A DNA stretch of 64,000 bases from Acidimicrobiia bacterium (GTDB taxonomy: Bacteria; Actinomycetota; Acidimicrobiia; IMCC26256; PALSA-610): the NCBI GenBank assembly GCA_036501845.1, contig DASXZO010000102.1:16284-80283 (forward strand), written 5' to 3'. Shown one piece after another: positions 33,578 to 53,653 of the stretch. Numbering within the stretch: position 1 is the first letter of the stretch; each line of letters starts with the position of its first letter. Made by a program: the position numbers and the translations under genes. Below the pieces are notes generated by a model. That model saw nothing but the letters and a program-made list of their open reading frames with translations, had not been told where the DNA came from and made no database searches.

Positions 33578-33777
33578 CTTGCTGCTCCTCGCGCCGCGCT
33601 CACTGCGCGACCATCCGCTCGCGGCGACCGGTGATCCGGCCACCGGCGCGTCTCGTACCCGACGCGGCGGTGATCCATGCGGCGCGGCCTGGGCGCGCAG
33701 CAATCAGCGCGCACGCGCGTCGGGGAGCAACGAGGGCCCCGCAGAAAAACAGCAGCCCTATCGAACGGACGGTTTGG

Positions 33778-36336: not shown

Positions 36337-36801
36337 TCACCCGAACGTAAGCGACCCTTGCAGCTCGACCGTGACCGCCACGTTGCTCGAGCCACTCTTG
36401 TCGTTGCACTGGGTACCGATGCCGTGGATGCGGTAGGTGCCGTTGCCCGACGCATGCTTGTACGCACCATTACCGCTCGTGATCGTGTACGTGCCCGTCT
36501 GGTCGAACTCGAACGAGCACGTCCGAGGATCGTGGTGTTGGTTCGTCTTGCCCCCGTGGTGCTTGAGCATGATCGATCCCTTGGGGAACGTGAAGCGATC
36601 GGCGGTCTGGCCGAGCTCGGTGTCCGTGCCCTTCGCCGAAATCGGGCCGGCCGCGACCACCGTCTGCGCTCCCGACGACGTCGACATCTGAATTCCGGTG
36701 AAGTACTGGGTGGGCGGGTTCGCGGCGCCGGCGGTGGTGGCGATGTTCGCCATTCCCAGTACGCCGATGACGGCCACGCCGAGCAATGCGCGCAATTTCA
36801 T
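36337..36801 (-). CDS. small secreted protein (no family recognised)
   Basis: I chose ATG 36801 (AAAGGAA 5 nt upstream). The signal is MKLRALLGVAVIGVLGMANIATTAGA. Element 2 lies 71 nt upstream. Confidence 0.7.
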   Translation of the reverse strand: MKLRALLGVAVIGVLGMANIATTAGAANPPTQYFTGIQMSTSSGAQTVVAAGPISAKGTDTELGQTADRFTFPKGSIMLKHHGGKTNQHHDPRTCSFEFDQTGTYTITSGNGAYKHASGNGTYRIHGIGTQCNDKSGSSNVAVTVELQGSLTFG

Positions 36802-36871
36802 GAACATTCCTTTCATTGGATGTCACTCGTGAGGATCGAACGCAAGTGTCCGCCAGCTGTCGCGTTCGCAC

Positions 36872-36888
36872 ATCCGGCACCTGACGGA
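36872..36888. promoter_or_regulatory. element 2, copy R1 (17-bp near-palindrome)
   Basis: The plus strand ATCCGGCACCTGACGGA is the reverse complement of TCCGTCAGGTGCCGGAT. All 17 of 17 positions are identical in the four copies. Confidence 0.55.
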
Positions 36889-37075
36889 CGTTCGCCCGCC
36901 CGTCACGGTGATCCTGATGAGGTGATCCTCGATCGATCTCGCGCTGCCGACGCACAGGGCCGCGTGGCCAAGCCTGGCCCCCGTCGTGACTTTGGTGAGC
37001 CTAACCTAAGTAGTGAGGAAGCGGACCTGGGGTACGCTCAGGGGCCTTGCGTCGCAGAAGGAAGCCCATATACAG

Positions 37076-37409
37076 ATGAGTACCCGCACACCGCAGCGTC
37101 CGCCTTCGAGCGCCACGGCGCCGACGCTGTCGACGTTGTTGTCGCGCCGAAGCGCCGGCCGCCTGCACGGGCTACGCCATCACCCTCGCAGCGCACCAGC
37201 TCGGGCTGGGCGCGATATGGAAGTCAACTCCGTTCACCACAGGCAACGCACTCTGCGGCGCGCTCGACATCACCGCCGACGATCAGTTTCTCGGTTGGAT
37301 CAATCTCGGCCAATCGAGCGACGCATTGTCGTCCGAGCCGCGACCCGAGATCGACCTCGCGAAGATCGTCCGTCATCTGAGCCCGAGCGGAGTTCCCACG
37401 CGCTCATGA
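37076..37409 (+). pseudogene. nitroreductase-family gene with an internal out-of-frame deletion
   Basis: Frame 2 from ATG 37076 gives MSTRTPQRPPSSATAPTLSTLLSRRSAGRL, the typical nitroreductase N-terminus (L..LL.RRS.R). Around 37155 the sense switches to frame 3: AACTGYAITLAAHQLGLGAIWKSTPF...DDQFLGWINLGQSS...*, the typical C-terminus. The central ~100 aa of the fold are missing. Confidence 0.55.
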
Positions 37410-37465
37410 ACCGCGCGACGGGCTGATACCGGGCGCGTGCCGGTGGCGGGTCGAACGCGAGACGC

Positions 37466-39619
37466 TCAGTTGACGAGCGGGTCGCGCGGGAGACCGAGGA
37501 TGCGTTCGCCGATCTGGTTGCGCTTGATCTCCGAGGTGCCACCCGCGATTGACATCCCGCGGTGGAACAGCACGAGCATGTTCGACGTTGCGCCCGCGCC
37601 CTCGAAGAACAGCGAGTCGGGCCCGTTGAGCTGGGTCATGATCGCGGCGGCGTCGTGGCCCACCTCGGAGAGCACCAGCTTGGTGATCGCGCCTTCCGGC
37701 CCCGGGCCGGCTGCCAGCACCGCGCGGTGCACACTGCGGACGTTGAGCAATCCGATCGCGCGCTGCTGCGCGATGTAATGACCGATGCGCACCGCGCCGC
37801 CGGGCAGGCGTTCGGGGTGCGCGTCGAAGGGTGCGATCATCATTTCGCCCGGGAGGGTCATGCCGCCCTGGCCGCCGCCGATGCTCACACTCTCGTTGCC
37901 GAGCGTTGCCCGTGCCACGGTCCAGCCGCCATCGACCGGACCCACCACGTCATCGTCGGGCACGAACACGTCGTCGAAGAACACCTCGTTGAACTCGGAC
38001 TGGCCCGTGGTCATGCGCAACGGCCGCACTTCCACACCGGGCGCGTGCATGTCGAGCACCACCATCGTGATGCCTTCGTGCTTCGGCACGTCGGGGTTCG
38101 TGCGCACCGTGGCGAAGCCCATCCCGGCCACGTGTGCGCCCGAGGTCCACACCTTCTGGCCGTTGATCTTCCAGCCGCCGTCGACGCGCGTCGCGCGGGT
38201 CTTCACGCCGGCCGCGTCGGAGCCGGCATCAGGCTCGCTGAAGAGCTGGCACCAGATCACGTCTTGGCGCAACGCCGGCGCCACCCATCGCTCCACCTGG
38301 TCGGGCGTGCCGTGCTGGATCAGCGTGAGGATCACCCAACCGGTGATCCCGTAGGCCGGCTTCTTCACACCGGCCGCTGCAAACTCTTGCTCGATCACGA
38401 GCTGCTCCACCGCGCCGGCGCCGCGGCCCCACGGCGTCGGCCAGTGCGGTTGCACGTATCCGGTCTCGATCAACCGCTCGCGCTGCGCCTCGGCCGGCAA
38501 ATCCTTGATGCTCTCCGCGAAGGCGCGTACCTCGTCGCGGATCGACTCCGCCTCGGGCGGCAGCTCGACATCCGTTGCTCGCACCACGCCCCGCCGGGTG
38601 AGGTCGGTGAGATCGGCCGCCGCACTGTCGGGATCGAGCAGTTGGAGCAGCACCGTCGCGCGGCGCATATAGAGGTGCGCGTCGTGCTCCCACGTCATGG
38701 CGATGCCGCCCTGCACCTGCGTGTCGAGATTCGCGCAGAGGTCGGCTGCCGGTGCCGCGAGCGTGGCGGCCATCGCGGCCGCATACGAGAGCTGGTCGGC
38801 ACCCTGTTTCGCAGCGCGCGCGGCATCCCACACCGCACCGGTGGCGAGCTCGGTGGCCACGAGCATGTTGGCGCAGTGATGCTTCACGGCCTGGAACATC
38901 GCGATCGGGCGTCCGAACTGCTGACGCACCTTGGCGTACTCCGCAGCCTGATCGGTGCACTCGCGCGCCACTCCAACCGCTTCGGCGGAGAAGAGCAACC
39001 TCGTGAGATCGATGAGCGTCCGGCGCGCGCCGGAAATCACTGTCGCCGTCGCGCCGTCAAATGTGACGCGCGACGCGCGGCGAGTGGGATCGAGGTTGCG
39101 CGGCGTTTCGAGCGCAACTCCGTTGCCCGCTTCGACAATCGCCACGTCGTCGCCGGCAGGAACGAGGAAGAGGTCGGCCAGTGGTGCACCCACGACCGCG
39201 CCTGCCGATCCGCTCGCCTTCCCATTGCTGACCGTGACGTTGGCAGCCGCTGTCACAGCCGCGGTCGCCGAACCATCGGCGAGTCGCTTCAGATAGCTCG
39301 CTTTCGTCGCGTCGTCGGCGGCGGCCGCGATCACGGCACTGGCGATCACGGTGGGAACGAACGGCCCCGGCGCGAGCACCCGACCGAGCTCCTCGACCAC
39401 CACGACGAGCTCTTCGAGCCCGAATCCCGAACCGCCGTACTGCTCCGGAACGTGCAGGCCGAGCCAGCCGATCTCCACGAGGTCGGCCCAGAACGGCGGC
39501 CGCTCCTCGGTCTTCGCCTCGAGCAGCGCGCGAGCCGCGGCGAGCGCGTGGCGCGACCGGAGAACGTCCTGAGCCGTGTCGGCCAGAGCCCGGTGCTCAT
39601 CGGTGATCGCGATCGACAT
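37466..39619 (-). CDS. acyl-CoA dehydrogenase family protein with two tandem ACAD units (FadE-like, ~717 aa)
   Basis: The first unit has WLGLHVPEQYGGSGFGLEELVVVVEELGR. The second has an ACAD middle and C-terminal region (GWKINGQKVWTSGAHVAG...GGTSEIKRNQIGERILGLP). I chose ATG 39619 (GAGAGGGTGG upstream). Confidence 0.9.
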   Translation of the reverse strand: MSIAITDEHRALADTAQDVLRSRHALAAARALLEAKTEERPPFWADLVEIGWLGLHVPEQYGGSGFGLEELVVVVEELGRVLAPGPFVPTVIASAVIAAAADDATKASYLKRLADGSATAAVTAAANVTVSNGKASGSAGAVVGAPLADLFLVPAGDDVAIVEAGNGVALETPRNLDPTRRASRVTFDGATATVISGARRTLIDLTRLLFSAEAVGVARECTDQAAEYAKVRQQFGRPIAMFQAVKHHCANMLVATELATGAVWDAARAAKQGADQLSYAAAMAATLAAPAADLCANLDTQVQGGIAMTWEHDAHLYMRRATVLLQLLDPDSAAADLTDLTRRGVVRATDVELPPEAESIRDEVRAFAESIKDLPAEAQRERLIETGYVQPHWPTPWGRGAGAVEQLVIEQEFAAAGVKKPAYGITGWVILTLIQHGTPDQVERWVAPALRQDVIWCQLFSEPDAGSDAAGVKTRATRVDGGWKINGQKVWTSGAHVAGMGFATVRTNPDVPKHEGITMVVLDMHAPGVEVRPLRMTTGQSEFNEVFFDDVFVPDDDVVGPVDGGWTVARATLGNESVSIGGGQGGMTLPGEMMIAPFDAHPERLPGGAVRIGHYIAQQRAIGLLNVRSVHRAVLAAGPGPEGAITKLVLSEVGHDAAAIMTQLNGPDSLFFEGAGATSNMLVLFHRGMSIAGGTSEIKRNQIGERILGLPRDPLVN

Positions 39620-39736
39620 TGGCCACCCTCTCGTCTCGCGGGAAAGCGCCAAATGTAAGGGCGTCGTGGCACCGGCACACATTCCTGGCGACCGTGACGG
39701 CACTCAGCGCCTGCGGCCGGCGCTCGGGCGTGCCGC

Positions 39737-41590
39737 TCAGATCTCCATGCGGAGCGATTCGGCTTCGTCGGCCAGCGACAGCCAGTGGTCCTCGGCCGCG
39801 TCGACGCGCTCCTGGGCGGCGGTCAGCAACCCGCCGAGGCGTACCAGTTCCTCGCGGTCGTTGACGGCCGCTCCCAGCTCGGTCTGCAGCGCGTCTCGTG
39901 TGGCGATCGCGTCGGCGAGCGCCCGGTCGGCGCGACCTAGCTGGTGGCGAAGCGTGCTCGGGCTCTTCGTGGTCACTCGTGGCGCTTCGGTTGCCGTCGA
40001 GCGCGGACGCGCGGGAGCTGCAGATGACGCGGATCCTGCCGAGACGGGCCCACGAGTGGTGGTCGACGGCTGCGCGGCGTGCTGCGCCAACCAGCCCGCG
40101 ACACCGCCGCGTACCACCGACGTGCGGCCGTTGCCGTCGAGCGCCAGCACCTCGGTCACGGTGCGATCGAGGAATACGCGGTCGTGGCTGACCACCACCA
40201 CGATGCCCGGCCAGTCGTCGAGGAATTCCTCGAGCGCGCGCAACGTATCGAGGTCGAGATCGTTCGTGGGTTCGTCGAGCAACAGCACGTTGGGTTGTTC
40301 GAGCAACGTGAGCAACAGTTGGAGACGCCGGCGCTCCCCGCCCGACAACGTGCCGATCGGCGCGAACTGCGCGTCGCCGTCGAACCAGAACTGGCGCATC
40401 AGCTTCACGTCGTCGAGCGTCGGCTCACGCTTGTCGCGGGCCACGGCGTCGCGTACGCGCTGCGAAAGGTCGAGGTCGCGGCCGAGCTGGTCGTAGTAAC
40501 CGATCCTGACCGTGGCGCCGGTATCGATGGAGCCCTGCGTGGGCTGGAGTCGGCCGGCGACGAGGTCGAGCAGCGTGCTCTTGCCGGCGCCGTTCGGACC
40601 GACAACCCCGAGGCGATCGCCAGGTTCGAGCATGTAGTCGAACGGCTCGAGCACGAGCAGCGCTGATGCTTCGCTGGCCGCGCTGTCATTGTCGTGGGCG
40701 CGCGGCCACGAGAAGCCGACGCCATGGATCTCGATGCCCTTAGAACCCAAACGAGCACTCCCGAGCGACAAGCCGAGCTCACCGTCGCGCGCACTCGCTT
40801 GTGGGCGGCGAGCGAGCAGCGCGTTGGCAGTGTCGATGCGAGCCTTGGGTTTCGATGTGCGCGCCGGCGCACCGCGCCGCAACCACGCCAGCTCGCGGCG
40901 CGCGAGGTTCTTGCGGGTCTGTTCGGCCGTCGCGGCTTGGGCTTCTCGAACGATGCGAGCGACGAGGTACGCCGCGTATCCAGATCCTCCGGTCCGCTCG
41001 GCTGGCACGTGGAGGTAACAGGCGCCACGGTCGATCTCGAGCACCTTGTTGGTAACACGGTCGAGCACGTGACGGTCGTGGGTCACGAGGAGCAACCCGC
41101 CGGCGAACGCGGCGAGCCACGTCTCGAGGTACGCGATGGCATCGAGGTCGAGATGGTTCGTCGGCTCGTCGAGGATGAGCGCGTCCCACTGTCGTGCGAG
41201 CAGCGCGGCGAGCGCGACGCGCTTGCGCTGCCCGCCCGACAGTTCGTCGGTCGACGCGTCGAGCGCGCCTTGCATGCCGAGGCGCGACAGCATCGCCTCG
41301 CCTTGCCACGCCTGGTCACCGAGGCCGTTGCACACCGCCGCGCGCACCGAGCCGGGTGGCAACATCGGGAGCTGGGGCAGCACGCCGACCCGAGCCGCAC
41401 GCCCGCGCCGCACCACGCCGGCTTCTGGTTGGCGCTCGCCGCTCATCATTGCGAGGAGCGTGCTCTTGCCCGAACCGTTGAGACCCACCACGCCGATACG
41501 GTCGCCGTCGTTGAGGGTGAGCGACAGATCGGTGAACAGAGGGCGATCGGGTCGAGATGCCCGCAGCCCTTGTGCGTCGATCAGAATCAC
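39737..41590 (-). CDS. ABC-F family ATPase (two ABC cassettes, no TM domain)
   Basis: The Walker A motifs are GLNGSGKST and GPNGAGKST. The ABC signatures are LSGGQRKRVALA and LSGGERRRLQLL. The C-terminus is a coiled-coil tail. Confidence 0.9.
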   Translation of the reverse strand: MILIDAQGLRASRPDRPLFTDLSLTLNDGDRIGVVGLNGSGKSTLLAMMSGERQPEAGVVRRGRAARVGVLPQLPMLPPGSVRAAVCNGLGDQAWQGEAMLSRLGMQGALDASTDELSGGQRKRVALAALLARQWDALILDEPTNHLDLDAIAYLETWLAAFAGGLLLVTHDRHVLDRVTNKVLEIDRGACYLHVPAERTGGSGYAAYLVARIVREAQAATAEQTRKNLARRELAWLRRGAPARTSKPKARIDTANALLARRPQASARDGELGLSLGSARLGSKGIEIHGVGFSWPRAHDNDSAASEASALLVLEPFDYMLEPGDRLGVVGPNGAGKSTLLDLVAGRLQPTQGSIDTGATVRIGYYDQLGRDLDLSQRVRDAVARDKREPTLDDVKLMRQFWFDGDAQFAPIGTLSGGERRRLQLLLTLLEQPNVLLLDEPTNDLDLDTLRALEEFLDDWPGIVVVVSHDRVFLDRTVTEVLALDGNGRTSVVRGGVAGWLAQHAAQPSTTTRGPVSAGSASSAAPARPRSTATEAPRVTTKSPSTLRHQLGRADRALADAIATRDALQTELGAAVNDREELVRLGGLLTAAQERVDAAEDHWLSLADEAESLRMEI

Positions 41591-41697
41591 GACGCCTCAG
41601 GTTACGGGGCGACGCCGCCAACCCTCGGTAGGGACTGACCGCCGCAACCGCGCCAATTGGGGCTCCAGGCCGGGTCGCTTCGTGCCGATCCCCTGAG

Positions 41698-43743
41698 GTG
41701 ATGAGCGGGCAGGCCATCATCGACGGCCTCGCCGCGGGCATCGACCCGTTCGACCTGATGGCGGGCCTACCCGATTGTGTCGTCGTCACCGACGGCCACG
41801 GCACCGTGCGGTGGATCAACGACCAGGTCACTGACGTGCTCGGCTTCGCGCCCGACGATGTGCTCGGCACGAGCGTGTTCGACGTGGCGCACCCGGCCCA
41901 GCAGCACGACGCGGTGCAGTCCTTCACCACTACCGCGACGAGCCCCGGCTCGTATCCGCCCATCGAGATGCTGATTCGCGACCTGCGCGGCAACTACCAC
42001 TATTTCGACGTACGGGCGCGAACGCTGCAACGCGGCACCGAGTCGCTCATCGTCTTCGTGGCGCGCCCGACGCACGAACGCGACGCGCTTCAGCGCCGGC
42101 ACCGCTTGTACTTCGAGGAAGCGCCGGCTGCGCTCGGCTCGGTCGTCCCGGCACAGCGCGGGGTCGACGCCAACGGCCCGATGGCACAGCTGTTCGGACA
42201 CACCCGCGAAGCAATGCTGTCGATGGACGGCATGCAGCTCTTGCATCCGGATGATCGTTCCGACTCCCAAGGCGAGCTTGCCGCGCTGGAGACGAATGGG
42301 CAGCAGCGTGTGGGAGCCGAGCGCCGCTTCCTCAAGGCAGATGGATCAACCTTCTACGGCCGAGTGGTCACCACCACAGTTCGCACGCCCGTCGGTGCGC
42401 TCGAGCGACTGCTCTTCACGATCGCCGATGTCACGCCGGAGCGCGAAGCGCGCGAGCTCCTCGCGCGCAGCGAAGCACGATTCCGCGCGCTCGTCGAGCA
42501 CTCGCCCGACATCGTGGCCATCCTCCGCGCTGACGGCGATTGGGAGGCAAGCCAGCAAGGCACTCGTCTGCTCGGCTACCCCAAGGGATTCGACCCGCCT
42601 GGTGGTGCACTGTCACTCGTACACCCCGACGACGCCGAGCGTGCCGCCGAAGCACTCGCTGCGATCTTCGCCGGTCGCCGCTCGCCCGGGGAGCCACTCG
42701 AGCTGCGCCTGCGCGCCGCCGACGGCGACTACCGCGAATTCGAGTGCATCGGCCAGAATCTCGACGGCGAGCCGAGCGTCAGCGGGGTGGTGATCACCGC
42801 CCGAGACATCACGCAACGCCGGGCCGCAGAACGAGCACTCGGTCAGGCCGAGAGCCGTTTTCGCGCGACCTTCGAACGCGCGCCCATGGTCATCTCGATG
42901 GTCGACGCCAGCGGGTGCATCATCGACATCAACCCGACCGGTTGCCGGCTGTTGGGTCGTACTCGAGGTGAGCTCCTCGGCACCCCGGCCGAAGCAACCG
43001 TGCATCCCGAAGATCGGGAACTTGCGATCGATGCGACGTTGCGCCAGCTCGGCGGCGAGCAACTCCGGGCCGAATTCCGCATCGTCCGGGCCGACGGCAC
43101 CGAATGGTGGGCGCTCTCGAGTGCCGTCCAGGTCGACAGCGACGACCCGTATTTCCTCACGCTTCAAGTCGACATCACTGCACAGAAGCGGCTCGAAGAA
43201 GAGCTGCGCGTGCGCGCAACGCATGACCCGCTCACCGGCGTTCGAAACCGTGCCGCGGTGGTCGACCACCTCGAGCTGCTCCTCGCCCGCAGGGTCGCCG
43301 AACCCGTGACGGTCATGTTCGTCGATCTCGATGGCTTCAAGGCGGTGAACGACGCGCTCGGGCACAGCGCCGGCGACGCAGTGCTCACCGGGGTTGCGCA
43401 GCGCATCGAGAGCTGCCTCCGGCCCGAAGACGTGGTCGCCCGGATCGGCGGCGACGAATTCGTCGTTGTCTGCGCCACGCTCGACAGTCCCGATACAGCA
43501 CAGCGGCTCGGCGTACGCGTGCGGGAAGCCATCGCGGCGCCCGTCACCTTCGGCAACACATCGGTGCACGTCGACGCCAGCATCGGCATCGCGCGCAGCA
43601 CACCAAGCGACGACACCGCCGGATTGCTGAAGCGCGCCGACGCCGCCGCGTACCGTGCGAAGAGCAACGGGCGAGGCCGCGTCGAACTCGCAACGATCGT
43701 CGACGAGTCGAGAGTGGCGTCGATGAAGCCCCGGCAGCCGTAA
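41698..43743 (+). CDS. multi-PAS diguanylate cyclase (GGDEF)
   Basis: Three or four PAS-like modules are present (for example PDCVVVTDGHGTVRWINDQ and ISMVDASGCIIDINP). The C-terminal GGDEF domain is DPLTGVRNRAAV...DLDGFKAVNDALGHSAGD...ARIGGDEFVVV. Confidence 0.9.
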   Translation: MMSGQAIIDGLAAGIDPFDLMAGLPDCVVVTDGHGTVRWINDQVTDVLGFAPDDVLGTSVFDVAHPAQQHDAVQSFTTTATSPGSYPPIEMLIRDLRGNYHYFDVRARTLQRGTESLIVFVARPTHERDALQRRHRLYFEEAPAALGSVVPAQRGVDANGPMAQLFGHTREAMLSMDGMQLLHPDDRSDSQGELAALETNGQQRVGAERRFLKADGSTFYGRVVTTTVRTPVGALERLLFTIADVTPEREARELLARSEARFRALVEHSPDIVAILRADGDWEASQQGTRLLGYPKGFDPPGGALSLVHPDDAERAAEALAAIFAGRRSPGEPLELRLRAADGDYREFECIGQNLDGEPSVSGVVITARDITQRRAAERALGQAESRFRATFERAPMVISMVDASGCIIDINPTGCRLLGRTRGELLGTPAEATVHPEDRELAIDATLRQLGGEQLRAEFRIVRADGTEWWALSSAVQVDSDDPYFLTLQVDITAQKRLEEELRVRATHDPLTGVRNRAAVVDHLELLLARRVAEPVTVMFVDLDGFKAVNDALGHSAGDAVLTGVAQRIESCLRPEDVVARIGGDEFVVVCATLDSPDTAQRLGVRVREAIAAPVTFGNTSVHVDASIGIARSTPSDDTAGLLKRADAAAYRAKSNGRGRVELATIVDESRVASMKPRQP

Positions 43744-43828
43744 CCCGAGTCGAATTTCCGCGCCGTCCGGCGGAATCACCCGATCGTTGTGAGGCGCTTG
43801 CACCCCCGACGGGTGAGAGTCGCCGTCG

Positions 43829-44284
43829 GTGAACATGCCGCCCTCATCCGAGTCGACCGCCGACCTGGTGTGCATCTCGCCCCATCAAGCCCTCTTCGGG
43901 TCGTGGGCCGCGGCAGTGCTGATCGACATCGTCGTACTGAACCTCATCATCGAGTTCGTCCCGTCGATCACAATCGACTCGTTCTATATCTCGATCCTGA
44001 CTGCGTGTCTCTTCCGACTCCTGCTCGGCGTGACCCTCCAGATCGAACATCGCCTCACGCGATACTTCCGGTCGAAGCACGGACGAGCCATGCGCATCGT
44101 GGGTGCACTCGCTGCGTATCTCGTGCTGTTCGCGAGCAAGTTCGTCATCCTCGAAGCCGTCGACCGCGTCTTCGGCGCCCGTGTGGATCTCGGCGGCCTC
44201 GGCGAAGTCATCTTGATTTCGCTCACGCTGCACGCCTCGGAAATCGTGTTTCGGCGCGTATACGAGTGGCTCGCCAAGCACTGA
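43829..44284 (+). CDS. integral membrane protein (4 predicted helices, no family recognised)
   Basis: Hydrophobic helices include WAAAVLIDIVVLNLIIEFV, FYISILTACLFRLLLGV, IVGALAAYLVLFASKFVIL and LGEVILISLTLHA. Confidence 0.65.
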   Translation: MNMPPSSESTADLVCISPHQALFGSWAAAVLIDIVVLNLIIEFVPSITIDSFYISILTACLFRLLLGVTLQIEHRLTRYFRSKHGRAMRIVGALAAYLVLFASKFVILEAVDRVFGARVDLGGLGEVILISLTLHASEIVFRRVYEWLAKH

Positions 44285-44344
44285 TACGGGAGTGCGGCAG
44301 ACTCGTGCGGCACTACGACGCCTGAGGCGAGCTTTTGCCGTCGG

Positions 44345-44926
44345 TCAATGCGCGGAGTTCGTGATGTCCGTGGCGAAGACGGTGGTGGTCGTATGCGCAT
44401 ACGCGTCGACGGGCAGCGCGACTTGGAAATCCAGCGCCGTATTGAACTGCCAGTTCCCAGGCCCGAAGTACGCGGTGCGGGTCGTTGTGGCGCTGGTCTC
44501 GACGTTCGCCGGGAAGGCCGCGCGCTCGGGATACGAGTCGGTCATGCACGTCGGTCCTTGCGATGCCGGGCAGTAGAGCGAACCGCTGAGCGACGTGCCG
44601 CCAGGATTGGCGGTGACCGACGAGATCACCGTGACGAGGTCGTAGTGACCAGTCGGGACGGTCAGGGCCACCGAAGCGCAGGCCGTCCAGGTGTAGCTCT
44701 GAGTCACGCAACTGGATGTGGTCTCGATGGCGGTGTTGTGGAATGTCCACAGGTCGGTCGACTTCGCCGGCGTGACGGCACCAGCATGCAGGTCCTGGGC
44801 TTGGATCGTCCCGTCCACAATGTCAGACGAGCGCACGGTGTTCGCCGCATACGCCGTCCCACTGAGCGCGACGAACAGCGCCACGAACGCCACGAGGTTG
44901 TGCCGGAAGAGTGTCCGAAGCTTCAT
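44345..44926 (-). CDS. secreted protein (no family recognised)
   Basis: I trimmed the track ORF to ATG 44926 (GGAGGG 8 nt upstream). The signal is MKLRTLFRHNLVAFVALFVALSGTAYA. Element 2 lies 66 nt upstream. Confidence 0.7.
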   Translation of the reverse strand: MKLRTLFRHNLVAFVALFVALSGTAYAANTVRSSDIVDGTIQAQDLHAGAVTPAKSTDLWTFHNTAIETTSSCVTQSYTWTACASVALTVPTGHYDLVTVISSVTANPGGTSLSGSLYCPASQGPTCMTDSYPERAAFPANVETSATTTRTAYFGPGNWQFNTALDFQVALPVDAYAHTTTTVFATDITNSAH

Positions 44927-44991
44927 GAAGAACCCTCCATTGCGGTCGTCGTTGGATCGACCCCAGTTTCGGACCTTCGTCGCGCCCGCAC

Positions 44992-45008
44992 ATCCGGCAC
45001 CTGACGGA
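44992..45008. promoter_or_regulatory. element 2, copy R2
   Basis: The plus strand reads ATCCGGCACCTGACGGA. The ~97 nt from here to the ATG align with the R1 leader. Confidence 0.55.
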
Positions 45009-45063
45009 CGCAGCCTCTTCGACCTCAAGGTCTTGGAGTGCGCCCACCGCGATTCGAGCTCGC

Positions 45064-45480
45064 CTACTCCCCCAGCGCCGCGCGTAGATCGCGGACATGC
45101 TCTTGCGTTTGGGTGAGCAATGGACGCAGCGCCTCCGCGACGTCGACCAGCCCGAGTTCGTTGGCCTGCTGCACGCGCTCGCGGTACCGCTCGAGTTGAG
45201 CCGTCTCGAGTTTGAGATCGTTGCCGAGCGCTTCGCGTGCGTCGGAAGCAGGCGTTGCGTGTGCGGAATCGGTGGTTGGGACGCCACCGAGGAAGTCGAC
45301 CTGCTCGGCCAGAATCAAAGCGTGTGCAACCTCCTGACCGACGTGGACTCGCAGTTCGTCGACCGTGCTCAGGTATTCGGCCCCGCTGATGACCGCGATG
45401 TGCTGGATGTACTGCACGATCGATTGGTATTCGGTCGCGAGGTCTGCGTTCAACAGATCAATGAACTCTGGCTTCTCCAT
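45064..45480 (-). CDS. ferritin-like (four-helix-bundle, Dps/bacterioferritin-like) protein
   Basis: The sequence LNADLATEYQSIVQYIQH...GQEVAHALILAEQVDFLGG...LKLETAQLERYRE shows the paired E..H and E metal-ligand helices of the ferritin-like superfamily. Confidence 0.75.
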   Translation of the reverse strand: MEKPEFIDLLNADLATEYQSIVQYIQHIAVISGAEYLSTVDELRVHVGQEVAHALILAEQVDFLGGVPTTDSAHATPASDAREALGNDLKLETAQLERYRERVQQANELGLVDVAEALRPLLTQTQEHVRDLRAALGE

Positions 45481-45531
45481 AGCCAGCGCGATTACCCGAA
45501 GCTCAGCCTGGCTACGCCTCCCGCGTTTTCG

Positions 45532-48507
45532 TCAGCTGAGGAACACGAACGCGTCTACGTCGATGCGAGCGCGTCCCGCGGTGGCCGGGTTCGTGATCAC
45601 GATCGTGTGCTTGCCGACCCCGAAGGCCCGGACGAACATGATCGCCTCAGTACTAGTCGACGAACTCTTGGTGTCGACTGACACCGGAGCTGCCGCGTCG
45701 AGCTTGATCGACGCCACGCCGCGGTTCGGGGCGCGCGTCGTGACCCACGCCAACTCCTTGCCAGTGAATGTGAACGTCGCCGTCCGACCCTTCGTCGTCG
45801 AGAAGTCAACCGAGCCGCCTGACGAACCGGCGAGCGCCTGATGCGTCCAGCCGGCCGAGTAGATGACGCCCGCACCGTTCTCCTGCACAAGGTTCACTTT
45901 GAATGCGCTGCCGGAAACGAACGCGCTGGCGTTGCCGGCTACGTCGGTCGCGAGCACCTGGTACTGGTACATGTGGCCCGCGGCGAGCGTCTGGGTGATC
46001 GATGTGGCACTCGATCCCTGCGAGACGATCGCGTATGAGCCCTTGTCCACCTTGCGTTCCACTACGTACGAGTTCACGCCGCTTGCGCCGTCGACGGCGT
46101 GCCAGGTGATCGTGACCGGTACGCCCGCCGTAATGAGCCTCGAGCCGATCGCGAGGGTCGCCTTGGGCGCAGCGTCGACAACGGGTGGGTACGGGTCGTA
46201 ACACATCGGGCCGTAGTACTGGTCGCCACTCGAGAGGCCCTCGTTGTCCCACGCCAGGATGTGGATCGTGTGGCAACCCTGGCCGACGTCCGACATGTGG
46301 ACCGTGCCCGTCGTGCCGTTCGGCACCTGCGGACCGTCGTAGAACACGCCACCGCTTCCGGGATGCGGTTCCGAGACCGGATCGGCGACGGCTTGGTCCC
46401 ACGCCGAACTGAACCCGGCGACGCCCGTGGGCGGCCCGCTGCCGCCGGTATCGGCAACCGTCCACGTGATCGCCGGGTTCGTGCGCCACCACACGTTCTT
46501 CTCGGGCGTGTTGGTGAGCGACACGGTGGGCCTGCCATTGTCGTAGCCCGTGAACCAGTTGAGATCCCAGGCGAGCTGCAGCATGTTCACCGAACCCCAC
46601 CCCGTGACGAGGTCATAACCAGGCGTTGCGCAGTAGCCGGTGCCGACGTTGTTGCTGTTGCAACCGCTCGTGATGTCGTAGAACGGGGAGTGAGTGCCCG
46701 TGAGCTTGCCGGCGGCCCACACCGGGAAGTTGGCGTCGCCGACAGGCCCTTTACCGTATGAGAGCTGGTAGGCGTTTTCTTGCGCGAAGAAGCCGGCCAT
46801 TTCGGGCGCGGCGATGCTCGTGCCTCCCCACGTCCCAGCGCCGCCATTCACGTAGATACGTTGCGGCGTGTTGAGCCAATCGGCGTTGAGTGCGAGATCG
46901 GGAATGCTCCGCGCCGTCCCGCACTGGTGCAGCGTGTCGTACGAACCCGCGCTGAAGTGCGAGCTGCATCCGCCACCCGAACCGCCGCCGTTGTTTGCGC
47001 AACCCTGCGAGTTCGCACCCCAGGCCACTTCTGACACGAACGTGTCGTTCGCGGTGAGGGTCAACTGGGTGCCGCCGACGGCGAGGACGTCCGGGTCGGA
47101 TTGCGGGTAGCCCACACTCGCGTGTGAACAGTCGTCGTATGCGCCGCGATCGCCCGACGCCGCCATGAGTGTCCAGCCCTGACCGAGCATCGAGTTGAAG
47201 ATGCTGTGGCGTGTGTCCATCGCCGCGTCGCTGCACCCGTAGACCTCGGTGCAACTCCAACTGGTCTCGAAGACGCGCGCGAAATTGTCGTTGAGGATGT
47301 GGTTGTACAGATCGGCGACGGTGGCGTCGTTGCGGTTCACCCCGTCGTACATGATCACCTTGGCGGTGTCACACCCGCAGCCGAAGCTGTTCGAGGTGGC
47401 GAGGGCCCATTCGCCGTCGGCGGTCCCCTCGATGTCACCCGCGGCGGGAGTGCCGTCGATCCAGTACTCGGCGATGTTGCTCGCGAGGAACGGGAAGAGC
47501 CCGAGAAAGCCGCTGAAGTCGGCGCCCGACTGGCTGCCGTACGAAGCGATCGCGATGGTCGCCTCACGCGGCGACGCGCTCCCTGTATGGAATGGATTGC
47601 AGCAGTGGCCCTGGTTGCGCAAGGCGGCGTAGTCGTATGCCTGCGACGTGTAGAAATCGGGCGGCGTGTACACCCCGTTGTCGATGCGACGTTCCGCGCC
47701 AGCCGACGCGGTGCTCGCAGGCGAGGTTCTGCTCGTCCCGCTCGGCGCGGCCCCGGGTTGCAACGACCGCGGCAACTTCGCGGGGTCGCCATCCTTGTAC
47801 ACGGTGGGGCCCGCTGCTTCGGCCGGACCCGCGACGTACGTTGGGTTCGCGGTGGGCGCGTCACCGCCGGCCGGGTGCATCTGCTGGATGTCGTTGAGCC
47901 CATCGACTGAGCGGACGATGGCCCCGACGTCGGCGGGCATCACGGGTTCAGAGTCATTGGCGAAGTATGACTCCCCGCGATCGGTGTAGTTGCGTAGGTG
48001 CACACTGAACGCTCGATCGATCGTGGCCACCGTGCCACTCACGTCGACGATCAGCCGGTTCGGATAACGGTCGGTGATCGTCAGTCCCATTGATCGAGCC
48101 CACTCGACGACTGCGCGCTCCGACGCGACGCTCGGCGAGAACCGTGCGTTCCACTGCGCCGGCGTGAGGAAGTGATGAAAGGACGGCGACGAACGATCCT
48201 CGAGCGCATCGATGAATCGTTGCTCACCTGCAGGGTCCGGCGTACGCAAACCGAGCGCGAGGCGGAGCGTTTGTTGCGAGTCGACGTCGCCGCGCGAGAT
48301 GGCTTCGCCCGAACGCACCTGGGGCGGGACTTGCGATGCCGTCAGCGCGTCGTCGCGAGTCTCGGATACGGCCGGCGCGATTGTGTGACCGCGGTCGGAC
48401 GTCAATGCAGCGTCTGATGTCTGTGGGAGGCCGATCGCTCCGGCGACCACAATTACCGCAAGGCCGGCACCGACCCGATGTAACCCGAACAGCCTCTGAT
48501 TCAGCAC
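45532..48507 (-). CDS. secreted S53 (sedolisin/kumamolisin-like) serine peptidase with long C-terminal Ig/FN3-like extension
   Basis: The pro-kumamolisin activation domain is FHHFLTPAQWNARFSPS...VVEWARSMGLTITDRYPNRLIVDVSGTVATIDRAF. The S53 catalytic Ser context is WGGTSIAAPEMAGFFA. About 400 aa of beta-rich domains follow. I chose GTG 48507 (signal LHRVGAGLAVIVVAGAIG); the start is uncertain. Confidence 0.85.
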   Translation of the reverse strand: MLNQRLFGLHRVGAGLAVIVVAGAIGLPQTSDAALTSDRGHTIAPAVSETRDDALTASQVPPQVRSGEAISRGDVDSQQTLRLALGLRTPDPAGEQRFIDALEDRSSPSFHHFLTPAQWNARFSPSVASERAVVEWARSMGLTITDRYPNRLIVDVSGTVATIDRAFSVHLRNYTDRGESYFANDSEPVMPADVGAIVRSVDGLNDIQQMHPAGGDAPTANPTYVAGPAEAAGPTVYKDGDPAKLPRSLQPGAAPSGTSRTSPASTASAGAERRIDNGVYTPPDFYTSQAYDYAALRNQGHCCNPFHTGSASPREATIAIASYGSQSGADFSGFLGLFPFLASNIAEYWIDGTPAAGDIEGTADGEWALATSNSFGCGCDTAKVIMYDGVNRNDATVADLYNHILNDNFARVFETSWSCTEVYGCSDAAMDTRHSIFNSMLGQGWTLMAASGDRGAYDDCSHASVGYPQSDPDVLAVGGTQLTLTANDTFVSEVAWGANSQGCANNGGGSGGGCSSHFSAGSYDTLHQCGTARSIPDLALNADWLNTPQRIYVNGGAGTWGGTSIAAPEMAGFFAQENAYQLSYGKGPVGDANFPVWAAGKLTGTHSPFYDITSGCNSNNVGTGYCATPGYDLVTGWGSVNMLQLAWDLNWFTGYDNGRPTVSLTNTPEKNVWWRTNPAITWTVADTGGSGPPTGVAGFSSAWDQAVADPVSEPHPGSGGVFYDGPQVPNGTTGTVHMSDVGQGCHTIHILAWDNEGLSSGDQYYGPMCYDPYPPVVDAAPKATLAIGSRLITAGVPVTITWHAVDGASGVNSYVVERKVDKGSYAIVSQGSSATSITQTLAAGHMYQYQVLATDVAGNASAFVSGSAFKVNLVQENGAGVIYSAGWTHQALAGSSGGSVDFSTTKGRTATFTFTGKELAWVTTRAPNRGVASIKLDAAAPVSVDTKSSSTSTEAIMFVRAFGVGKHTIVITNPATAGRARIDVDAFVFLS

Positions 48508-48541
48508 CCGGCCATGATCCGCCGGCGACGATGCCCGAGCA

Positions 48542-48558
48542 TCCGTCAGGTGCCGGAT
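48542..48558. promoter_or_regulatory. element 2, copy R3
   Basis: The plus strand reads TCCGTCAGGTGCCGGAT, 35 nt upstream of the proposed peptidase start. Confidence 0.5.
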
Positions 48559-48630
48559 ATGCCGGTAGAATCCCACAGGCGGCCCCCGTTTGTCACCGGG
48601 CTGCACGTGTACGAGAGTGGGCGCGATCGG

Positions 48631-49197
48631 TTAGCCCGTCGGGGTGTGTTCGTGGTGGTGGTCCACTGCGGTGAGCCAGCTTTCGTGGCGATAGCCGGCG
48701 ATCGCGGCGCGCACGACCTCCTCGACGTGTTCGGTGTCGATTCCCAGCGCGTGCCCGATGTGCACCGACCAGATCTCGGCGCGCAGGTTGTTCTCGAAAT
48801 CGATGTCGCTGCGCACCTCCGAGCGCGCCGCCTGGCGGTTTTGGCTCACCATGACGAACGTGGCGAGGAAGATCGCCTCGAGGCTGACCACCATCGTCAG
48901 CAGTCCGTACGGGAACGCGTCGAACACCAGCTTCGCTCCGAGGAGGCCCGCATTCATGGCGATCCAGACGCCGAACCACACGGCGTGGATGTATACGAAG
49001 CTGAGTGATCCGGCGAACGTAGTGACTCTGTCGGCGACGCGGTCCTGGGTGCGGCGGAACGCGGCGATGACTCGTCGTTCGTTACCGACGGCGTACGGAC
49101 CGGACTTGAACAGCTTGCCGTCTTCGACGCCATCGGCGCGATCGATGACGCGACAGGCCGGACACGCGAGGGTGGGTTCGTCCATGCGACGAACCAT
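48631..49197 (-). CDS. DUF1003-family membrane protein
   Basis: The sequence FAGSLSFVYIHAVWFGVWIAMN...FDAFPYGLLTMVVSLEAIFLATFVMVSQNRQ is the DUF1003 two-helix core. I trimmed the 290-aa track ORF to ATG 49197. Confidence 0.8.
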   Translation of the reverse strand: MVRRMDEPTLACPACRVIDRADGVEDGKLFKSGPYAVGNERRVIAAFRRTQDRVADRVTTFAGSLSFVYIHAVWFGVWIAMNAGLLGAKLVFDAFPYGLLTMVVSLEAIFLATFVMVSQNRQAARSEVRSDIDFENNLRAEIWSVHIGHALGIDTEHVEEVVRAAIAGYRHESWLTAVDHHHEHTPTG

Positions 49198-49478
49198 GCC
49201 ACGACCGCGCTCGACACGGACGGATCGCCAGCAGTCGCGACGAGTAGCCGGGCGACATCCTCCGACCGGGGGGTCGACGCCGCCGGTGTGGTCGTGCACC
49301 GTAACGACTGGGTGGGTCGGTGCGTGTCCCACCCCGCACCGACTCACTCCAGTGAGCCTGCCCGACCTCAGCGATGCTGCCTCGCATTCTGTGATCCGAG
49401 TGAACCTGGTGGTGACAGGAGAACACCGTGCGGCGCGACGTAGCGGGCGCAGTTTGTCGGGTCCGTTGACGTTGCCCG

Positions 49479-50087
49479 TTATGGCACACAAGGGCTGGTG
49501 CACGTGTACTGCACAGTCGCCCCGTGGAAGATGCCGCTGAACTCGCCGCTACCCGGATACGGAGACGTCGGCTGCGGCCGCCACTGCACCACATAACGGC
49601 GCCCGTTCACCACCGTTGCGATCGGGTTGCCGGTCTTCGTGTAGGTGGCGCGGTGGCACGGTCCCGCGTAGTACGGCGTGTCGAACGACACGTTCGTCGT
49701 CGTCATCGCATCCTGAGGCACGTACGAACCGAACATCAGCGGTTCGCCGAGACAGCCCGTGCGGTCGCCGGGAGTGAGTGTGAAGCTCACCGCCGTGACC
49801 CTCGCGCCTTTCGGCAGATTGATCGCGGCCTCGAAGGTGATCGGGCCGTTCGGTGGCTGTTCGCTGCTCTCGTACGAGGGCGTGACACCGCCTCCCGAGT
49901 TCGCGACGGCCTGTGGGGTCACTCGCGCGTCGAGCGAATGCATGTCGGTGCCGGCAACGGTGACAGTGAACGAAGTCGGAACGGCGGCCGCGGTGCTCGC
50001 CGACGACGATGCGGCCACGAAGATGCCGCCGCCACCGGCGGCAACGACAGTGACGGCGACGAGCGCAATGCGCTGGTGCAACGTCAT
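49479..50087 (-). CDS. secreted protein (orphan family 2, paralog B)
   Basis: The protein is collinear with 33778..34392 and has the same C-terminus, GIFHGATVQYTCTSPCVP. Its ATG overlaps the stop of the upstream gene (ATGA). Confidence 0.8.
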   Translation of the reverse strand: MTLHQRIALVAVTVVAAGGGGIFVAASSSASTAAAVPTSFTVTVAGTDMHSLDARVTPQAVANSGGGVTPSYESSEQPPNGPITFEAAINLPKGARVTAVSFTLTPGDRTGCLGEPLMFGSYVPQDAMTTTNVSFDTPYYAGPCHRATYTKTGNPIATVVNGRRYVVQWRPQPTSPYPGSGEFSGIFHGATVQYTCTSPCVP

Positions 50088-51256
50088 GAAGGATTGACCT
50101 GCTGGTGCCAGAGGCCTGCGCCATTGTTGATCACGATGTCGAGGGTCCCATTGGAGGCTTCACCCGCCACCTTGTAGACGCCGGATGTGCCCGACGGCGG
50201 CGTGAGATTGTGCACGGCACCGAACCCCGTCGCCGCGGTGTTCGTCAGCGCCGTGTAGACGTGGTTGGACTTGGTCCAGATCACCCACATCTGGCCGCCG
50301 GGCGCCGGGGCGATCGCCACGTTCGCGGTCGCGCCTGCGCTGCTCGGGACCGCGATCGACGACGTCGCACCGACCTTCCAGAGCCGCACGCCGGTGCACG
50401 TCGGGTAACCGACGCAGTATGCCTCGTACAGCCCGCCACCGACTCGTGCGGCGAGCGCGACGCGCTGGTCCGTCATGATGAAGTCACCCTTGCTGTTCAC
50501 CGATCCTGGCACGAACGCCGGGCTGCTCGCAGTGGGGAGCACGCGCTCCACCCACAGCCCCGGCTTCGACCCGTTGCTCGACCAACCGACGTAGGTGGCT
50601 CCGGTTGCGGAGTCTCGGACCAACGCGGTGTGGTACAGGCAACAGGTGCCGTTCGTGACTGTCTTGTCAGGTTCGGTCGCGGGATTCTTTGCGCTCACCC
50701 CGGAGTGGACATAGATCGACTCGTTGAAGGCGAATGCGCCGATCGGCGTGGTGCCGTTCATGACCGCATCAGCGCCGTAGTCGGAGTACGCCGTCTTGGC
50801 GTGTGACATCGCCCCAGCGTTGAGCGTGTAGCTCGTTCCGTTCGTGCTGAGAGCCGTGTAGAGCGCACCCGAGGTGAACGGATCCTTGATGTTGGTGCTG
50901 CGCAGCCCGCTGAACACGAGACGCAAGCGGCTGCCGTCGCGGATCAGCACGGGCATGTGGATGAGCGACGACCATCCCCCCAGCACGGTCGCAGGCGCCG
51001 TGCTCACACCCTGCCGTGACACGACAGCCTGCGCGTACGACTCGCTCGAGCCGGTGTCCTGCTCGTAGATGACGTGCAGGCTGCCGTCGGAGGCGCGCGC
51101 CATGCCAGGCGTATCGCTCAGACTCACCGCGCCCGCGGTGAGTCGCGTCCACTTACCTGGAGGGCCGGCCTTGGCCGGAGCCGCGAGTCCGGCGACCGTC
51201 AACGTGCCGACGGCACCGATTGCGAGAAGTCGACGCGCGCGTCTGTGCATCTTCAT
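50084..51256 (-). CDS. secreted protein, beta-rich / possibly propeller-like (no family recognised)
   Basis: The signal is MKMHRRARRLLAIGAVGTLTVAGLAAPAKA. I chose ATG 51256 (AGGA 5 nt upstream). Repeated motifs of the type 'G.L.V.Y/W' are present. Element 2 lies upstream. Confidence 0.75.
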   Translation of the reverse strand: MKMHRRARRLLAIGAVGTLTVAGLAAPAKAGPPGKWTRLTAGAVSLSDTPGMARASDGSLHVIYEQDTGSSESYAQAVVSRQGVSTAPATVLGGWSSLIHMPVLIRDGSRLRLVFSGLRSTNIKDPFTSGALYTALSTNGTSYTLNAGAMSHAKTAYSDYGADAVMNGTTPIGAFAFNESIYVHSGVSAKNPATEPDKTVTNGTCCLYHTALVRDSATGATYVGWSSNGSKPGLWVERVLPTASSPAFVPGSVNSKGDFIMTDQRVALAARVGGGLYEAYCVGYPTCTGVRLWKVGATSSIAVPSSAGATANVAIAPAPGGQMWVIWTKSNHVYTALTNTAATGFGAVHNLTPPSGTSGVYKVAGEASNGTLDIVINNGAGLWHQQVNPS

Positions 51257-51326
51257 GGTCATCCTGTCCAATCAACACGGCGAGGTGGTGCGCTCCCATC
51301 ATCACTCCGAAGCCGGAGGGCGGACA

Positions 51327-51343
51327 TCCGTCAGGTGCCGGAT
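51327..51343. promoter_or_regulatory. element 2, copy R4 (divergent region)
   Basis: The plus strand reads TCCGTCAGGTGCCGGAT. It lies between 50084..51256 (-) and 51572..52009 (+). Confidence 0.5.
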
Positions 51344-51571
51344 ACGTGGGGGCGTTCCGTAGACGATATTCGCTTCCGCGTCAGGCGACGCCGACCCACG
51401 GACTTCACCCTCGGCCGGACGTGCAAAACCAACAGCGCCGCGCGCGGTTTCCGAACATCAGGCTGCCAGACCCAAGTGCAAAACGAAAGTAAAAAGGTGA
51501 GACAGACCGCACGATTGGGGGTACCGGATTCCATGTAGCGGTAGGAACCGACTCGAAGGGGTGTACTGAAG

Positions 51572-52009
51572 ATGGGTCGTCTGGTGAATCGCGTCCTCGT
51601 GGTCGCAGTACCTTTCGCATGTGCGGCAGGAATGTGCGTCGGAACTGCCAACGCGGCGACGAGCGTCGTCAGTTGCAACAAACTCACCTACAACAAGACC
51701 ACGCACGCTGGAACGGTGACCGGCTGCACAGGGCAAACCGGTAGCTCCGGAACGCTCGCAAACTTCACGCCAAATGGCGGGACGGTGCACTGGAAGAACA
51801 AGACGACATCGACGTACACGACCAGCGCGTCCGACGAAGGCCCTGGTACGTGCCCATCGAAAACAGCCAAGTTCGTGCTACAGGGCAAGGTCACGAAGAG
51901 CACGAACAAGTCGGCCCCTAAGGGCTCGACGGTGTCGATGACGTTGTGCGACCCCAACGGAAGTACCGGGAACATCACGAACGCGACAGGAACGAAGGTC
52001 AAGATCTGA
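51572..52009 (+). CDS. small secreted Ser/Thr/Lys-rich Cys-containing protein
   Basis: The signal is MGRLVNRVLVVAVPFACAAGMCVGTANA. The mature part has four Cys. A GAAGGGG lies upstream. Confidence 0.7.
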   Translation: MGRLVNRVLVVAVPFACAAGMCVGTANAATSVVSCNKLTYNKTTHAGTVTGCTGQTGSSGTLANFTPNGGTVHWKNKTTSTYTTSASDEGPGTCPSKTAKFVLQGKVTKSTNKSAPKGSTVSMTLCDPNGSTGNITNATGTKVKI

Positions 52010-53047: not shown

Positions 53048-53653
53048 CTACTCGACGCGACTGGAAGTGAGATGGATCGGCCGGATGTCGATGATCGGCT
53101 GCACGTCCTCACGTCCAAGGATTGCGTCCAGGCGGCGTAATGCTGGCTGCACGACTTGGGAAAGCACGTCGGGTACGGGCGTCGATTCGTCGATATCGAG
53201 GCGCAGCCGGATCGGGTCATCGGGTGCACCGACTTCGGCTCGGGCGCGCCGGACGAGCGGCGACGCTTCGAGCTGTGCCTGCAGAGCACGGCTCAACGCC
53301 GAGCCGGCAACGACATTGCGGCCTGGCAGTTGCGCGTCGGCGCTGTTGGGTACCGCAGCGTCACGCTGGCTGCGCACAGGAGGCAGATGTGTCGCGAGCC
53401 AGCGGACGCCGAGTGCCGCGAGCAGCAGTCCGACCACGAGCGTGCCGATCTGGAAGGCCAGTTCGTGGCCCCGCAACAAACGGTCGCCGTGTGTGTTCAG
53501 AAGAGCGGTGTGCGCGTCGAGCGCGTCGCCGAACGTCCGCACCGCCTTCGTCGCCAGAAGAAGCCCGGCTACCGACACGACGACAAGCGCGACGCCGAAG
53601 ATCACCAAGCCGACGCGGCCGGCACGGAGCCGTGCGTTCCGTATCCGCTTCAT
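53048..53653 (-). CDS. alkaline-shock-response membrane anchor protein AmaP-like
   Basis: It has an N-terminal TM helix (VGLVIFGVALVVVSVAGLLLA), a second TM helix and a C-terminal region resembling AmaP. It is the last gene of the Asp23 operon (4-nt overlap). Confidence 0.7.
   Translation of the reverse strand: MKRIRNARLRAGRVGLVIFGVALVVVSVAGLLLATKAVRTFGDALDAHTALLNTHGDRLLRGHELAFQIGTLVVGLLLAALGVRWLATHLPPVRSQRDAAVPNSADAQLPGRNVVAGSALSRALQAQLEASPLVRRARAEVGAPDDPIRLRLDIDESTPVPDVLSQVVQPALRRLDAILGREDVQPIIDIRPIHLTSSRVE

Follow-up and report, generated by a model that had tools for sequence, protein, structure and literature searches.

An 18-bp near-palindrome at a fixed distance from -10-like hexamers: a putative activator site upstream of mainly secreted-protein genes in an uncultured Acidimicrobiia clade

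We describe an 18-bp near-palindrome that occurs four times in a 64-kb stretch of DNA (hereafter the window) from the genome of an uncultured soil actinobacterium of the class Acidimicrobiia, each time upstream of a gene start, and that is probably the binding site of a dimeric transcription activator. Among the closest described systems is the lux box, an inverted repeat of 20 bp that has its centre at -42.5 and needs both of its arms (PMC3376562). The element resembles the lux/tra boxes of LuxR-TraR-type regulators, which have a GerE helix-turn-helix, in being an inverted repeat (18 bp here) with both arms always present and a likely centre at -42.5, a position deduced here from the -10 hexamer and one leaderless start; moreover, the site is found at a LuxR-family (AAA_16...GerE) regulator locus in a related contig, L137. 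It differs from them in that its sequence is unrelated, the host is an actinobacterium and not a proteobacterium, and there is no LuxR of the acyl-homoserine-lactone type. A second group of comparable sites is exemplified by those of NtcA, GTAN8TAC centred at about -41.5, which are accompanied by a -10 box and no -35 box (PMC3898017). The palindrome, the spacer of ~21-22 nt and the nAnnnT pattern of the hexamer recall such class II sites of the NtcA/CRP/FNR type, whereas the half-sites (ATCCGnCA here) and their spacing are different. Finally, MalT boxes, with the core GGA(T/G)GA, replace the -35 region of promoters lacking one. The proximal arm of the present element reads CGGATG and a large LuxR-family gene is the sole lead to its regulator, a likeness that comes down to five bases; MalT boxes, in contrast, are asymmetric and occur in several direct or inverted copies at variable positions, and not as a single 18-bp near-palindrome.

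Acidimicrobiia are a widespread class of soil and water bacteria, most members of which are uncultured, and we know of no description of how transcription is controlled in them. The window (GC content ~66-70%) is part of a 96.6-kb contig of a metagenome-assembled genome (MAG) that bears the label Acidimicrobiia bacterium and locus tags of the form VGO03_137xx. Four further assemblies of this population (from JGI 3300036780 and from Logan SRR11833492 and SRR11832710) are 99.9-100% identical and collinear with it, and none shows an inversion between copies of the element.

A first-pass annotation of the window had reported four exact copies of the 17-mer TCCGTCAGGTGCCGGAT, two on each strand, and had described it as an imperfect palindrome with 14 of 18 symmetric positions whose repeated occurrence is unlikely by chance; all of this was reproduced. 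The copies lie on the minus strand at 36872-36888 (R1) and 44992-45008 (R2) and on the plus strand at 48542-48558 (R3) and 51327-51343 (R4). No variants with one to three mismatches were found in the window beyond these four, and shuffled sequence yielded a mean of 0.34 matches at ≤3 mismatches, with none of the 100 shuffles reaching four. Extended by one base, the site is an 18-mer, (A/G)TCCGTCAGGTGCCGGAT, which takes the forms ATCCGTCAGGTGCCGGAT, GTCCGTCAGGTGCCGGAT and ATCCGnCAnnTGnCGGAT; the symmetry of 14 of its 18 positions can be read directly from ATCCGnCAnnTGnCGGAT. The half-sites are of the ATCCGnCA type, and the centres of ATCCG and CGGAT are 13 bp apart. Every one of the four copies is intergenic. 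Because a further ~15 kb of this contig beyond the window (L132 and L135) contains no other copy, the four sites constitute a local cluster within 14.5 kb; each of the four copies in the ~79 kb of source contig lies 5' of a gene start with a fixed spacing to a -10-like hexamer. Outside the 17-mer, R1 and R2 have in common CG...GTGCG and a looser similarity up to the start codon, and R3 and R4 only CA...A. Read along the downstream gene, the asymmetric core runs in one direction at R1 and R2 (F) and in the opposite direction at R3 and R4 (R).

A further regularity concerns the distance to the hexamer. With each site oriented so that it reads towards its neighbouring gene, the alignment comprises 11 gene-facing cases from the window and from the related contigs L137, L142 and L143. 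All 11 have a hexamer of the form (G/C)AnnnT that begins 22 nt past the 18-mer, or 23 nt in two cases, and the spacing (i.e., 21-22 nt between the two elements) holds for both orientations of the core, as would be expected if palindromy explains the presence of both orientations, a suggestion already made in the first-pass annotation. The hexamers are GACACT (R1-F), GAAACT (R2-F), GATCAT (R3-R), GATGAT (R4-R) and GATATT (R4-F) in the window, CAAGAT (L137-8537-R), GACACT (L137-9467-F), GATGAT (L137-13448-R) and GATCAT (L137-16506-R) in L137, and CACACT (L142-F) and GATCAT (L143-R) in the remaining two contigs. Directions that face no gene mostly have no such hexamer. The spacing was compared with that at 138 places in unrelated DNA where the 17-mer occurs by chance; there, 16 of 274 directions (5.8%) show the hexamer, and the probability of obtaining the fixed spacing by chance is ~2e-9 when only ~7 independent promoters are counted.

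Matches in sequence collections, which stand at chance level in unrelated DNA, served as this negative control. Among the matches listed from an exact 17-mer scan of 185,579 species genomes there are only singletons in unrelated taxa, at chance level. A 20-mer scan of JGI metagenomes returned 10 matches, all in coding DNA of unrelated organisms (including a ParB gene and a gene common to L123, L125 and L129), and a scan of viral contigs returned 10 singletons, approximately the chance expectation. The 17-mer consequently does not behave like the high-copy dispersed repeat that the first-pass annotation had named as the outcome that would speak against a regulatory site: outside matches are at chance level and mostly coding, while the copies in the window are all intergenic. 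One contig, L127, was considered as a further site and rejected, the motif lying inside a real open reading frame (ORF). Rfam gave no match at the sites, and among the papers searched the sequence string matched only an unrelated human primer.

In -10 elements of the sigma-70 type, A at -11 and T at -7 are essential. All the hexamers found here lack the consensus first T and keep the A and T that match -11 and -7. A TTGACA-like -35 hexamer is absent 17-18 nt 5' of the -10 at the aligned sites. With the start of the S53 peptidase gene described below placed at 48507, the 18-mer would span -51 to -34, from which we infer that the centre of the palindrome lies at -42.5. All 11 cases have an unchanged promoter-proximal arm CGGAT, with G as the next base in 10 of them, and the single arm change observed is at the outermost distal base. 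No TGnCGGAT-N21-22-(G/C)AnnnT occurs outside full 18-mers, i.e., there is no promoter with a half-site only.

The first-pass annotation had also proposed a comparison of orthologous promoters, and this comparison revealed exact or one-change copies in three related lineages with diverged flanks. One relative is L137, a 179-kb ENA contig of which 20 kb was fetched. It has four exact copies of the 17-mer within 8 kb, at 8537, 9467, 13448 and 16506, all of them direct repeats and all 5' of gene starts. Their targets are a gene for a 219-aa secreted protein; a gene for a 121-aa membrane protein followed by an orthologue (78% amino acid identity) of G1, the gene downstream of R1; a gene for a 356-aa secreted protein; and a leaderless ORF of 59 aa with a large LuxR-family (AAA_16...GerE) regulator downstream of it. 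Outside G1 and its promoter, the fetched 20 kb shows no synteny with the window. The orthologous pair R1 and L137-9467 is 96.6% identical over 58 nt, from just 5' of the 18-mer to shortly past the -10, and similarity further upstream or downstream of this core is absent. A one-change site, ATCCGTCAGaTGCCGGAT, accompanies a G1 homologue with 56% identity in L142, and a one-mismatch site, cTCCGGCACCTGACGGAT, with the same spacing to the -10, accompanies an S53 homologue with 57% identity in L143, which comes from the same ENA sample as L137.

The G1 and S53 families keep the 18-mer across these lineages. It is absent at the G1 homologues with 45-48% identity (L138-L141) and at the S53 homologues of L144 (a 73%-GC organism) and L155 (another Acidimicrobiia MAG). 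The element is taxonomically restricted, and its variants could not be arranged into a graded series. The comparisons indicate that the 18-mer is under purifying selection within a narrow clade, and both the motif and its regulon in this uncultured Acidimicrobiia clade are previously undescribed.

We consider it reasonably probable that the 18-mer is the binding site of a homodimeric transcription activator of the class II type with a small, clade-specific regulon. The dimeric transcription factor site tentatively proposed in the first-pass annotation is supported by the conservation of the element, its promoter position, the fixed spacing to the -10, the lack of half-sites and a weak hairpin, and the geometry of the site, with a likely centre near -42.5, a weak -10 and no -35, favours an activator over a generic operator. 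The 18-mer, spanning approximately -51 to -34, would stand in for the -35 element; the bound dimer would contact and recruit RNA polymerase; and the weak hexamer (G/C)AnnnT located 21-22 nt past the 18-mer would complete the promoter. That the spacing varies by no more than 1 nt across all 11 cases speaks for a stereospecific contact with the polymerase. Because the contact surface of a dimer would be two-fold symmetric, the site could work either way round and could serve divergent genes, as at R4. The targets within the one clade would be the S53 peptidase, the G1 family and several orphan proteins, mainly secreted, together with the locus of the leaderless small ORF and the large LuxR-family (LAL) regulator in L137. 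Transcription starts, protein binding and activation rather than repression are all deduced from sequence.

Several observations weigh against this reading. The eight sites of the two species are identical at all 17 motif positions, including the four asymmetric positions of the 18-mer, which is stricter than usual for a transcription factor site. The hexamer is also present in two directions without a gene, L137-8537 forward (+22) and R1 reverse (+21). None of the Pfam-scanned or annotated genes adjoining the sites in the window encodes a regulator. Some of the promoters are homologous over 50-130 nt, so that the sites are not all independent and approximately seven independent cases remain. 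Finally, a recognisable -35 is often missing from actinobacterial promoters, and its absence here is for that reason no proof of dependence on an activator.

The homology between promoters deserves separate consideration. Modules that are homologous over 50-130 nt precede different genes, which implies that promoter modules have been duplicated and re-used: L137-16506, in front of the small ORF and LuxR-type regulator, is 86% identical over 103 nt to the module in front of the S53 peptidase gene in L143, and 74% identical over 131 nt to that of L142. Five modules have GATCMT-N6-GTG in common. The flanks have diverged to 74-86% identity with the 18-mer intact, and the strict conservation is partly a result of common descent. 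In the occurrence of homologous site-bearing modules of 50-130 nt before non-homologous genes the system is reminiscent of putative mobile promoters; unlike them, most of the sites share just the 18-mer and the spacing, and there is no transposition machinery and there are no terminal repeats. The modules seem to have spread by occasional duplication, with selection then acting on the 18-mer. A stronger version of this idea, possible if unlikely, is that the 18-mer and the -10 (with the leaderless GTG 6 nt further on in five modules) form a portable promoter module that was repeatedly copied before new or orphan secreted-protein genes and wired to one regulator of very high specificity. The asymmetric bases would then be kept through asymmetric or unusually stringent recognition, for example by a heterodimer or by a large LuxR-type oligomer reading all 18 bp.

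The small ORF that follows two of these modules is itself conserved. It begins VIFTVDLKLPETPGAPPTGTVTDAAGE…, is leaderless, starts 6 nt past the -10 of the 18-mer promoter, and is found in L137 (16295-16471, minus strand, 59 aa), where it overlaps the start of the LAL-type LuxR gene, and in L142 (2-76, minus strand). The window contains no homologue of it. In the L137 LAL regulator (12313-16320, minus strand) the AAA_16 and GerE parts are separated by a split, and the GerE frame runs without a stop through an 18-mer into the next secreted-protein gene; several genes of this contig are fragmentary, which suggests that the split and fused frames are indel errors of a long-read assembly and not real fusions.

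The protein at the site might alternatively be a dimeric repressor, the 18-mer being its operator over the -35 region and the secreted-protein genes being silenced until a signal arrives. A palindrome in promoter position that overlaps -51 to -34 would suit such an operator, and dedicated operators with few targets are often near-perfectly conserved, which fits the eight exact copies out of eight; since the absence of a -35 is common in Actinobacteria, the promoters would also leave room for a repressor. On the other hand, operators are normally found at variable positions over the -35, the -10 or the transcription start, whereas the spacing here is fixed, and the -10 hexamers all lack the first T, as is expected of weak promoters that depend on an activator. 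We therefore regard repression as distinctly doubtful.

It is very improbable that an alternative sigma factor reads the promoter directly, with CGGATG as a -35-like element and without a separate transcription factor. The invariant proximal CGGAT with its following G in 10 of 11 cases, the tolerance of changes at the distal end, the unusual GAnnnT type of the -10 hexamers, and a gene for an extracytoplasmic function (ECF) sigma factor located 3.3 kb from the site in L143 would all be in keeping with it. However, the spacer of 20-21 nt between CGGATG and the hexamer is too long for known promoters of the sigma-70 family (the ECF -35/-10 gap is ~16-18 nt), the distal half is as strictly conserved as the proximal half with no promoters having the proximal half only, and one and the same asymmetric core is used by promoters running either way. 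Moreover, tblastn with the L143 ECF sigma factor found no homologue in the window or its extensions.

That the 18-mer is a repeat or recombination element without a role in transcription (a REP-like palindrome, a miniature mobile element or a target of an invertase or recombinase) is scarcely credible: the exact identity of the copies, asymmetric positions included, their clustering (over 8 kb in L137 and over 14.5 kb in the window, there in both orientations), and the 50-130 nt of homology of some modules before different genes might suggest it, but the DNA hairpin is weak (minimum free energy -3 to -4 kcal/mol, z -0.2 to -1.3 versus shuffles), most pairs of copies share only 17-32 nt and longer homology is accounted for by orthology or by a small ORF that the modules have in common downstream, neither the scanned proteins near the sites nor the gene tables of L137 and L143 include a recombinase or transposase domain, the four further assemblies of the population are collinear with the window and the L137 copies all direct, matches in collections of genomes, metagenomes and viruses are no more frequent than chance predicts and lie mostly in coding DNA, and a fixed spacing to a -10 is unexpected for such elements. 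As to the named classes, repetitive extragenic palindromes (REP) and bacterial interspersed mosaic elements (BIME) differ from the 18-mer, which forms a weak hairpin and has four copies in the ~79 kb of source contig, all upstream of gene starts; miniature inverted-repeat transposable elements (MITE) differ in that most pairs of copies here share a short stretch and not a whole element with terminal repeats; and hix/sfx-like inversion sites differ in that there is no recombinase domain among the scanned proteins near the sites and no alternative arrangement in the four assemblies.

We now describe the target genes in the window, where gene models were derived from GC3-rich frames and Pfam. The first-pass annotation had placed the four sites 35-71 nt upstream of minus-strand genes, in agreement with the distances obtained here, namely 71 nt to G1 (ATG 36801), 66 nt to G2 (ATG 44926), 35 nt to G3, the S53 peptidase gene (GTG 48507), and 64 nt to G4 (ATG 51262). 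The N-termini encoded by all four genes are signal-peptide-like, as judged by eye. The further claim that the targets encode exported proteins holds to this extent in the window and not for every target in L137, where the genes for a membrane protein and the locus of the small ORF and LuxR-type regulator also carry the site. Predicted leaders are ~29-37 nt long with a Shine-Dalgarno sequence at G1, G2 and G4, and 0 nt at the S53 gene.

Site R1 (36872..36889, minus strand, 18-mer GTCCGTCAGGTGCCGGAT) has the F orientation towards G1. The predicted -10 of the G1 promoter, GACACT (36845..36850, minus strand), lies 21 nt past the 18-mer and is the same hexamer as in L137; transcription is predicted to start near 36838. 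G1 (36337..36801, minus strand) encodes a 154-aa all-beta protein of unassigned family with a signal-peptide-like N-terminus; its AlphaFold2 (AF2) model has low confidence (predicted local distance difference test, pLDDT, 52) and is too poor for a fold search. On the side of R1 away from G1 (36889-37465) there is a vestigial copy of the module, GATCCT-N6-GTGATCCTC…, with a frame behind it that has no coding signature and a nearby frame with a weak match to the C-terminus of nitroreductase; this region is likely decayed. We also considered that the motif itself is coding (HIRHLTD) and rejected this, the open frames across R1-R3 being interrupted and without a coding signature. Distant G1 homologues have a different conserved leader (L138 3230-3460, L140 40-272 and L141 400-631), …GGTGGCGATCCTyGGGGGCG…GGTGGGGCGCTCyCTCC…, the end of which can pair with the ribosome-binding site and which may be an undescribed cis-regulatory RNA.

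Site R2 (44992..45009, minus strand, 18-mer GTCCGTCAGGTGCCGGAT) is located just past the 3' end of a ferritin/Dps-like gene (45064-45480) in the F orientation towards G2. The predicted -10, GAAACT (44965..44970, minus strand), is again 21 nt past the 18-mer, and G2 (44345..44926, minus strand) encodes a protein of 193 aa that matches no Pfam family and whose N-terminus resembles a signal peptide.

Site R3 (48541..48558, plus strand, 18-mer ATCCGTCAGGTGCCGGAT) lies between the 3' end of a DUF1003 gene (48631) and the start of the S53 gene and serves a promoter on the minus strand, i.e., in the R orientation. The predicted -10, GATCAT (48514..48519, minus strand), is located 21 nt past the 18-mer and 6 nt before GTG 48507. 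G3 (45532..48507, minus strand) encodes a 991-aa secreted S53 (pro-kumamolisin) peptidase. We place its start at GTG 48507 because the signal peptides of homologues align from there; the public annotation (P0019, 928 aa) starts 63 codons too late and misses the signal peptide. With this GATCAT-N6-GTG layout the gene is probably leaderless.

Site R4 (51326..51343, plus strand, 18-mer ATCCGTCAGGTGCCGGAT) stands between divergent genes. Towards the G4 operon the predicted -10 is GATGAT (51298..51303, minus strand), 22 nt past the 18-mer. The operon (49479..51262, minus strand) comprises two genes, the first (50084-51262) for a secreted protein of 392 aa and the second (49479-50087) for a protein of 202 aa, the start of the latter overlapping the stop of G4 by 4 nt. 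The site also faces a plus-strand gene at 51572, as the first-pass annotation had said, and a predicted -10 on that side, GATATT (51365..51370, plus strand), lies 21 nt past the 18-mer. That gene (51572..52009, plus strand; the JGI start call is 51632) encodes a 145-aa protein with a signal-peptide-like N-terminus and is a possible second target of R4; GATATT is less certain as its promoter and would imply a long leader of ~195 nt.

The 18-mer is absent from the genes of three large multi-domain proteins, an esterase/GDSL lipase (14441-17314, minus strand), a CAP-domain/fn3 protein (26559-29204, minus strand) and a Big_1 protein (55961-58864, minus strand), which we take to be secreted judging from their domain content; consequently, the element is not a general mark of secreted-protein genes. 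General-stress-type genes are found around the cluster, namely a large catalase, a Dps/ferritin-like gene, DUF1003 and an Asp23/DUF6286 set (31427-33703, 45064-45480, 48631-49503 and 53650-55800), and a CsbD gene is present in L137; none of them carries the 18-mer.

With respect to the regulator, the regulatory genes recognised across the window by Pfam or from annotation are one each of the TetR, LAL-type LuxR and hybrid histidine kinase types and two for GGDEF proteins; none of them adjoins a site, and there is no CRP/FNR-family gene among the proteins scanned. The AAA_16...GerE locus directly 3' of a site in L137 is the sole lead. The nearest LuxR-type gene of the window (8088-10820) is 26 kb away from the cluster, has no site, and is 37% identical to the L137 protein over 60 aa; tblastn with the latter detected no orthologue in the window. 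Elsewhere in the window a fluoride riboswitch (Rfam RF01734, 57.9 bits; 19249-19308, minus strand) lies directly 5' of a CrcB gene (18680-19213, minus strand), an ordinary and known arrangement of riboswitch and fluoride channel.

The analysis provides a concrete promoter architecture and a first regulon, as predicted, for one clade of Acidimicrobiia. The 18-mer is specific enough to be used as a probe for the regulator, to list the full regulon, and to guide the annotation of start codons, of which the S53 gene is an example. Its strict conservation at 18 positions, in both orientations and across species, poses a puzzle about how much information the site of a regulator needs.

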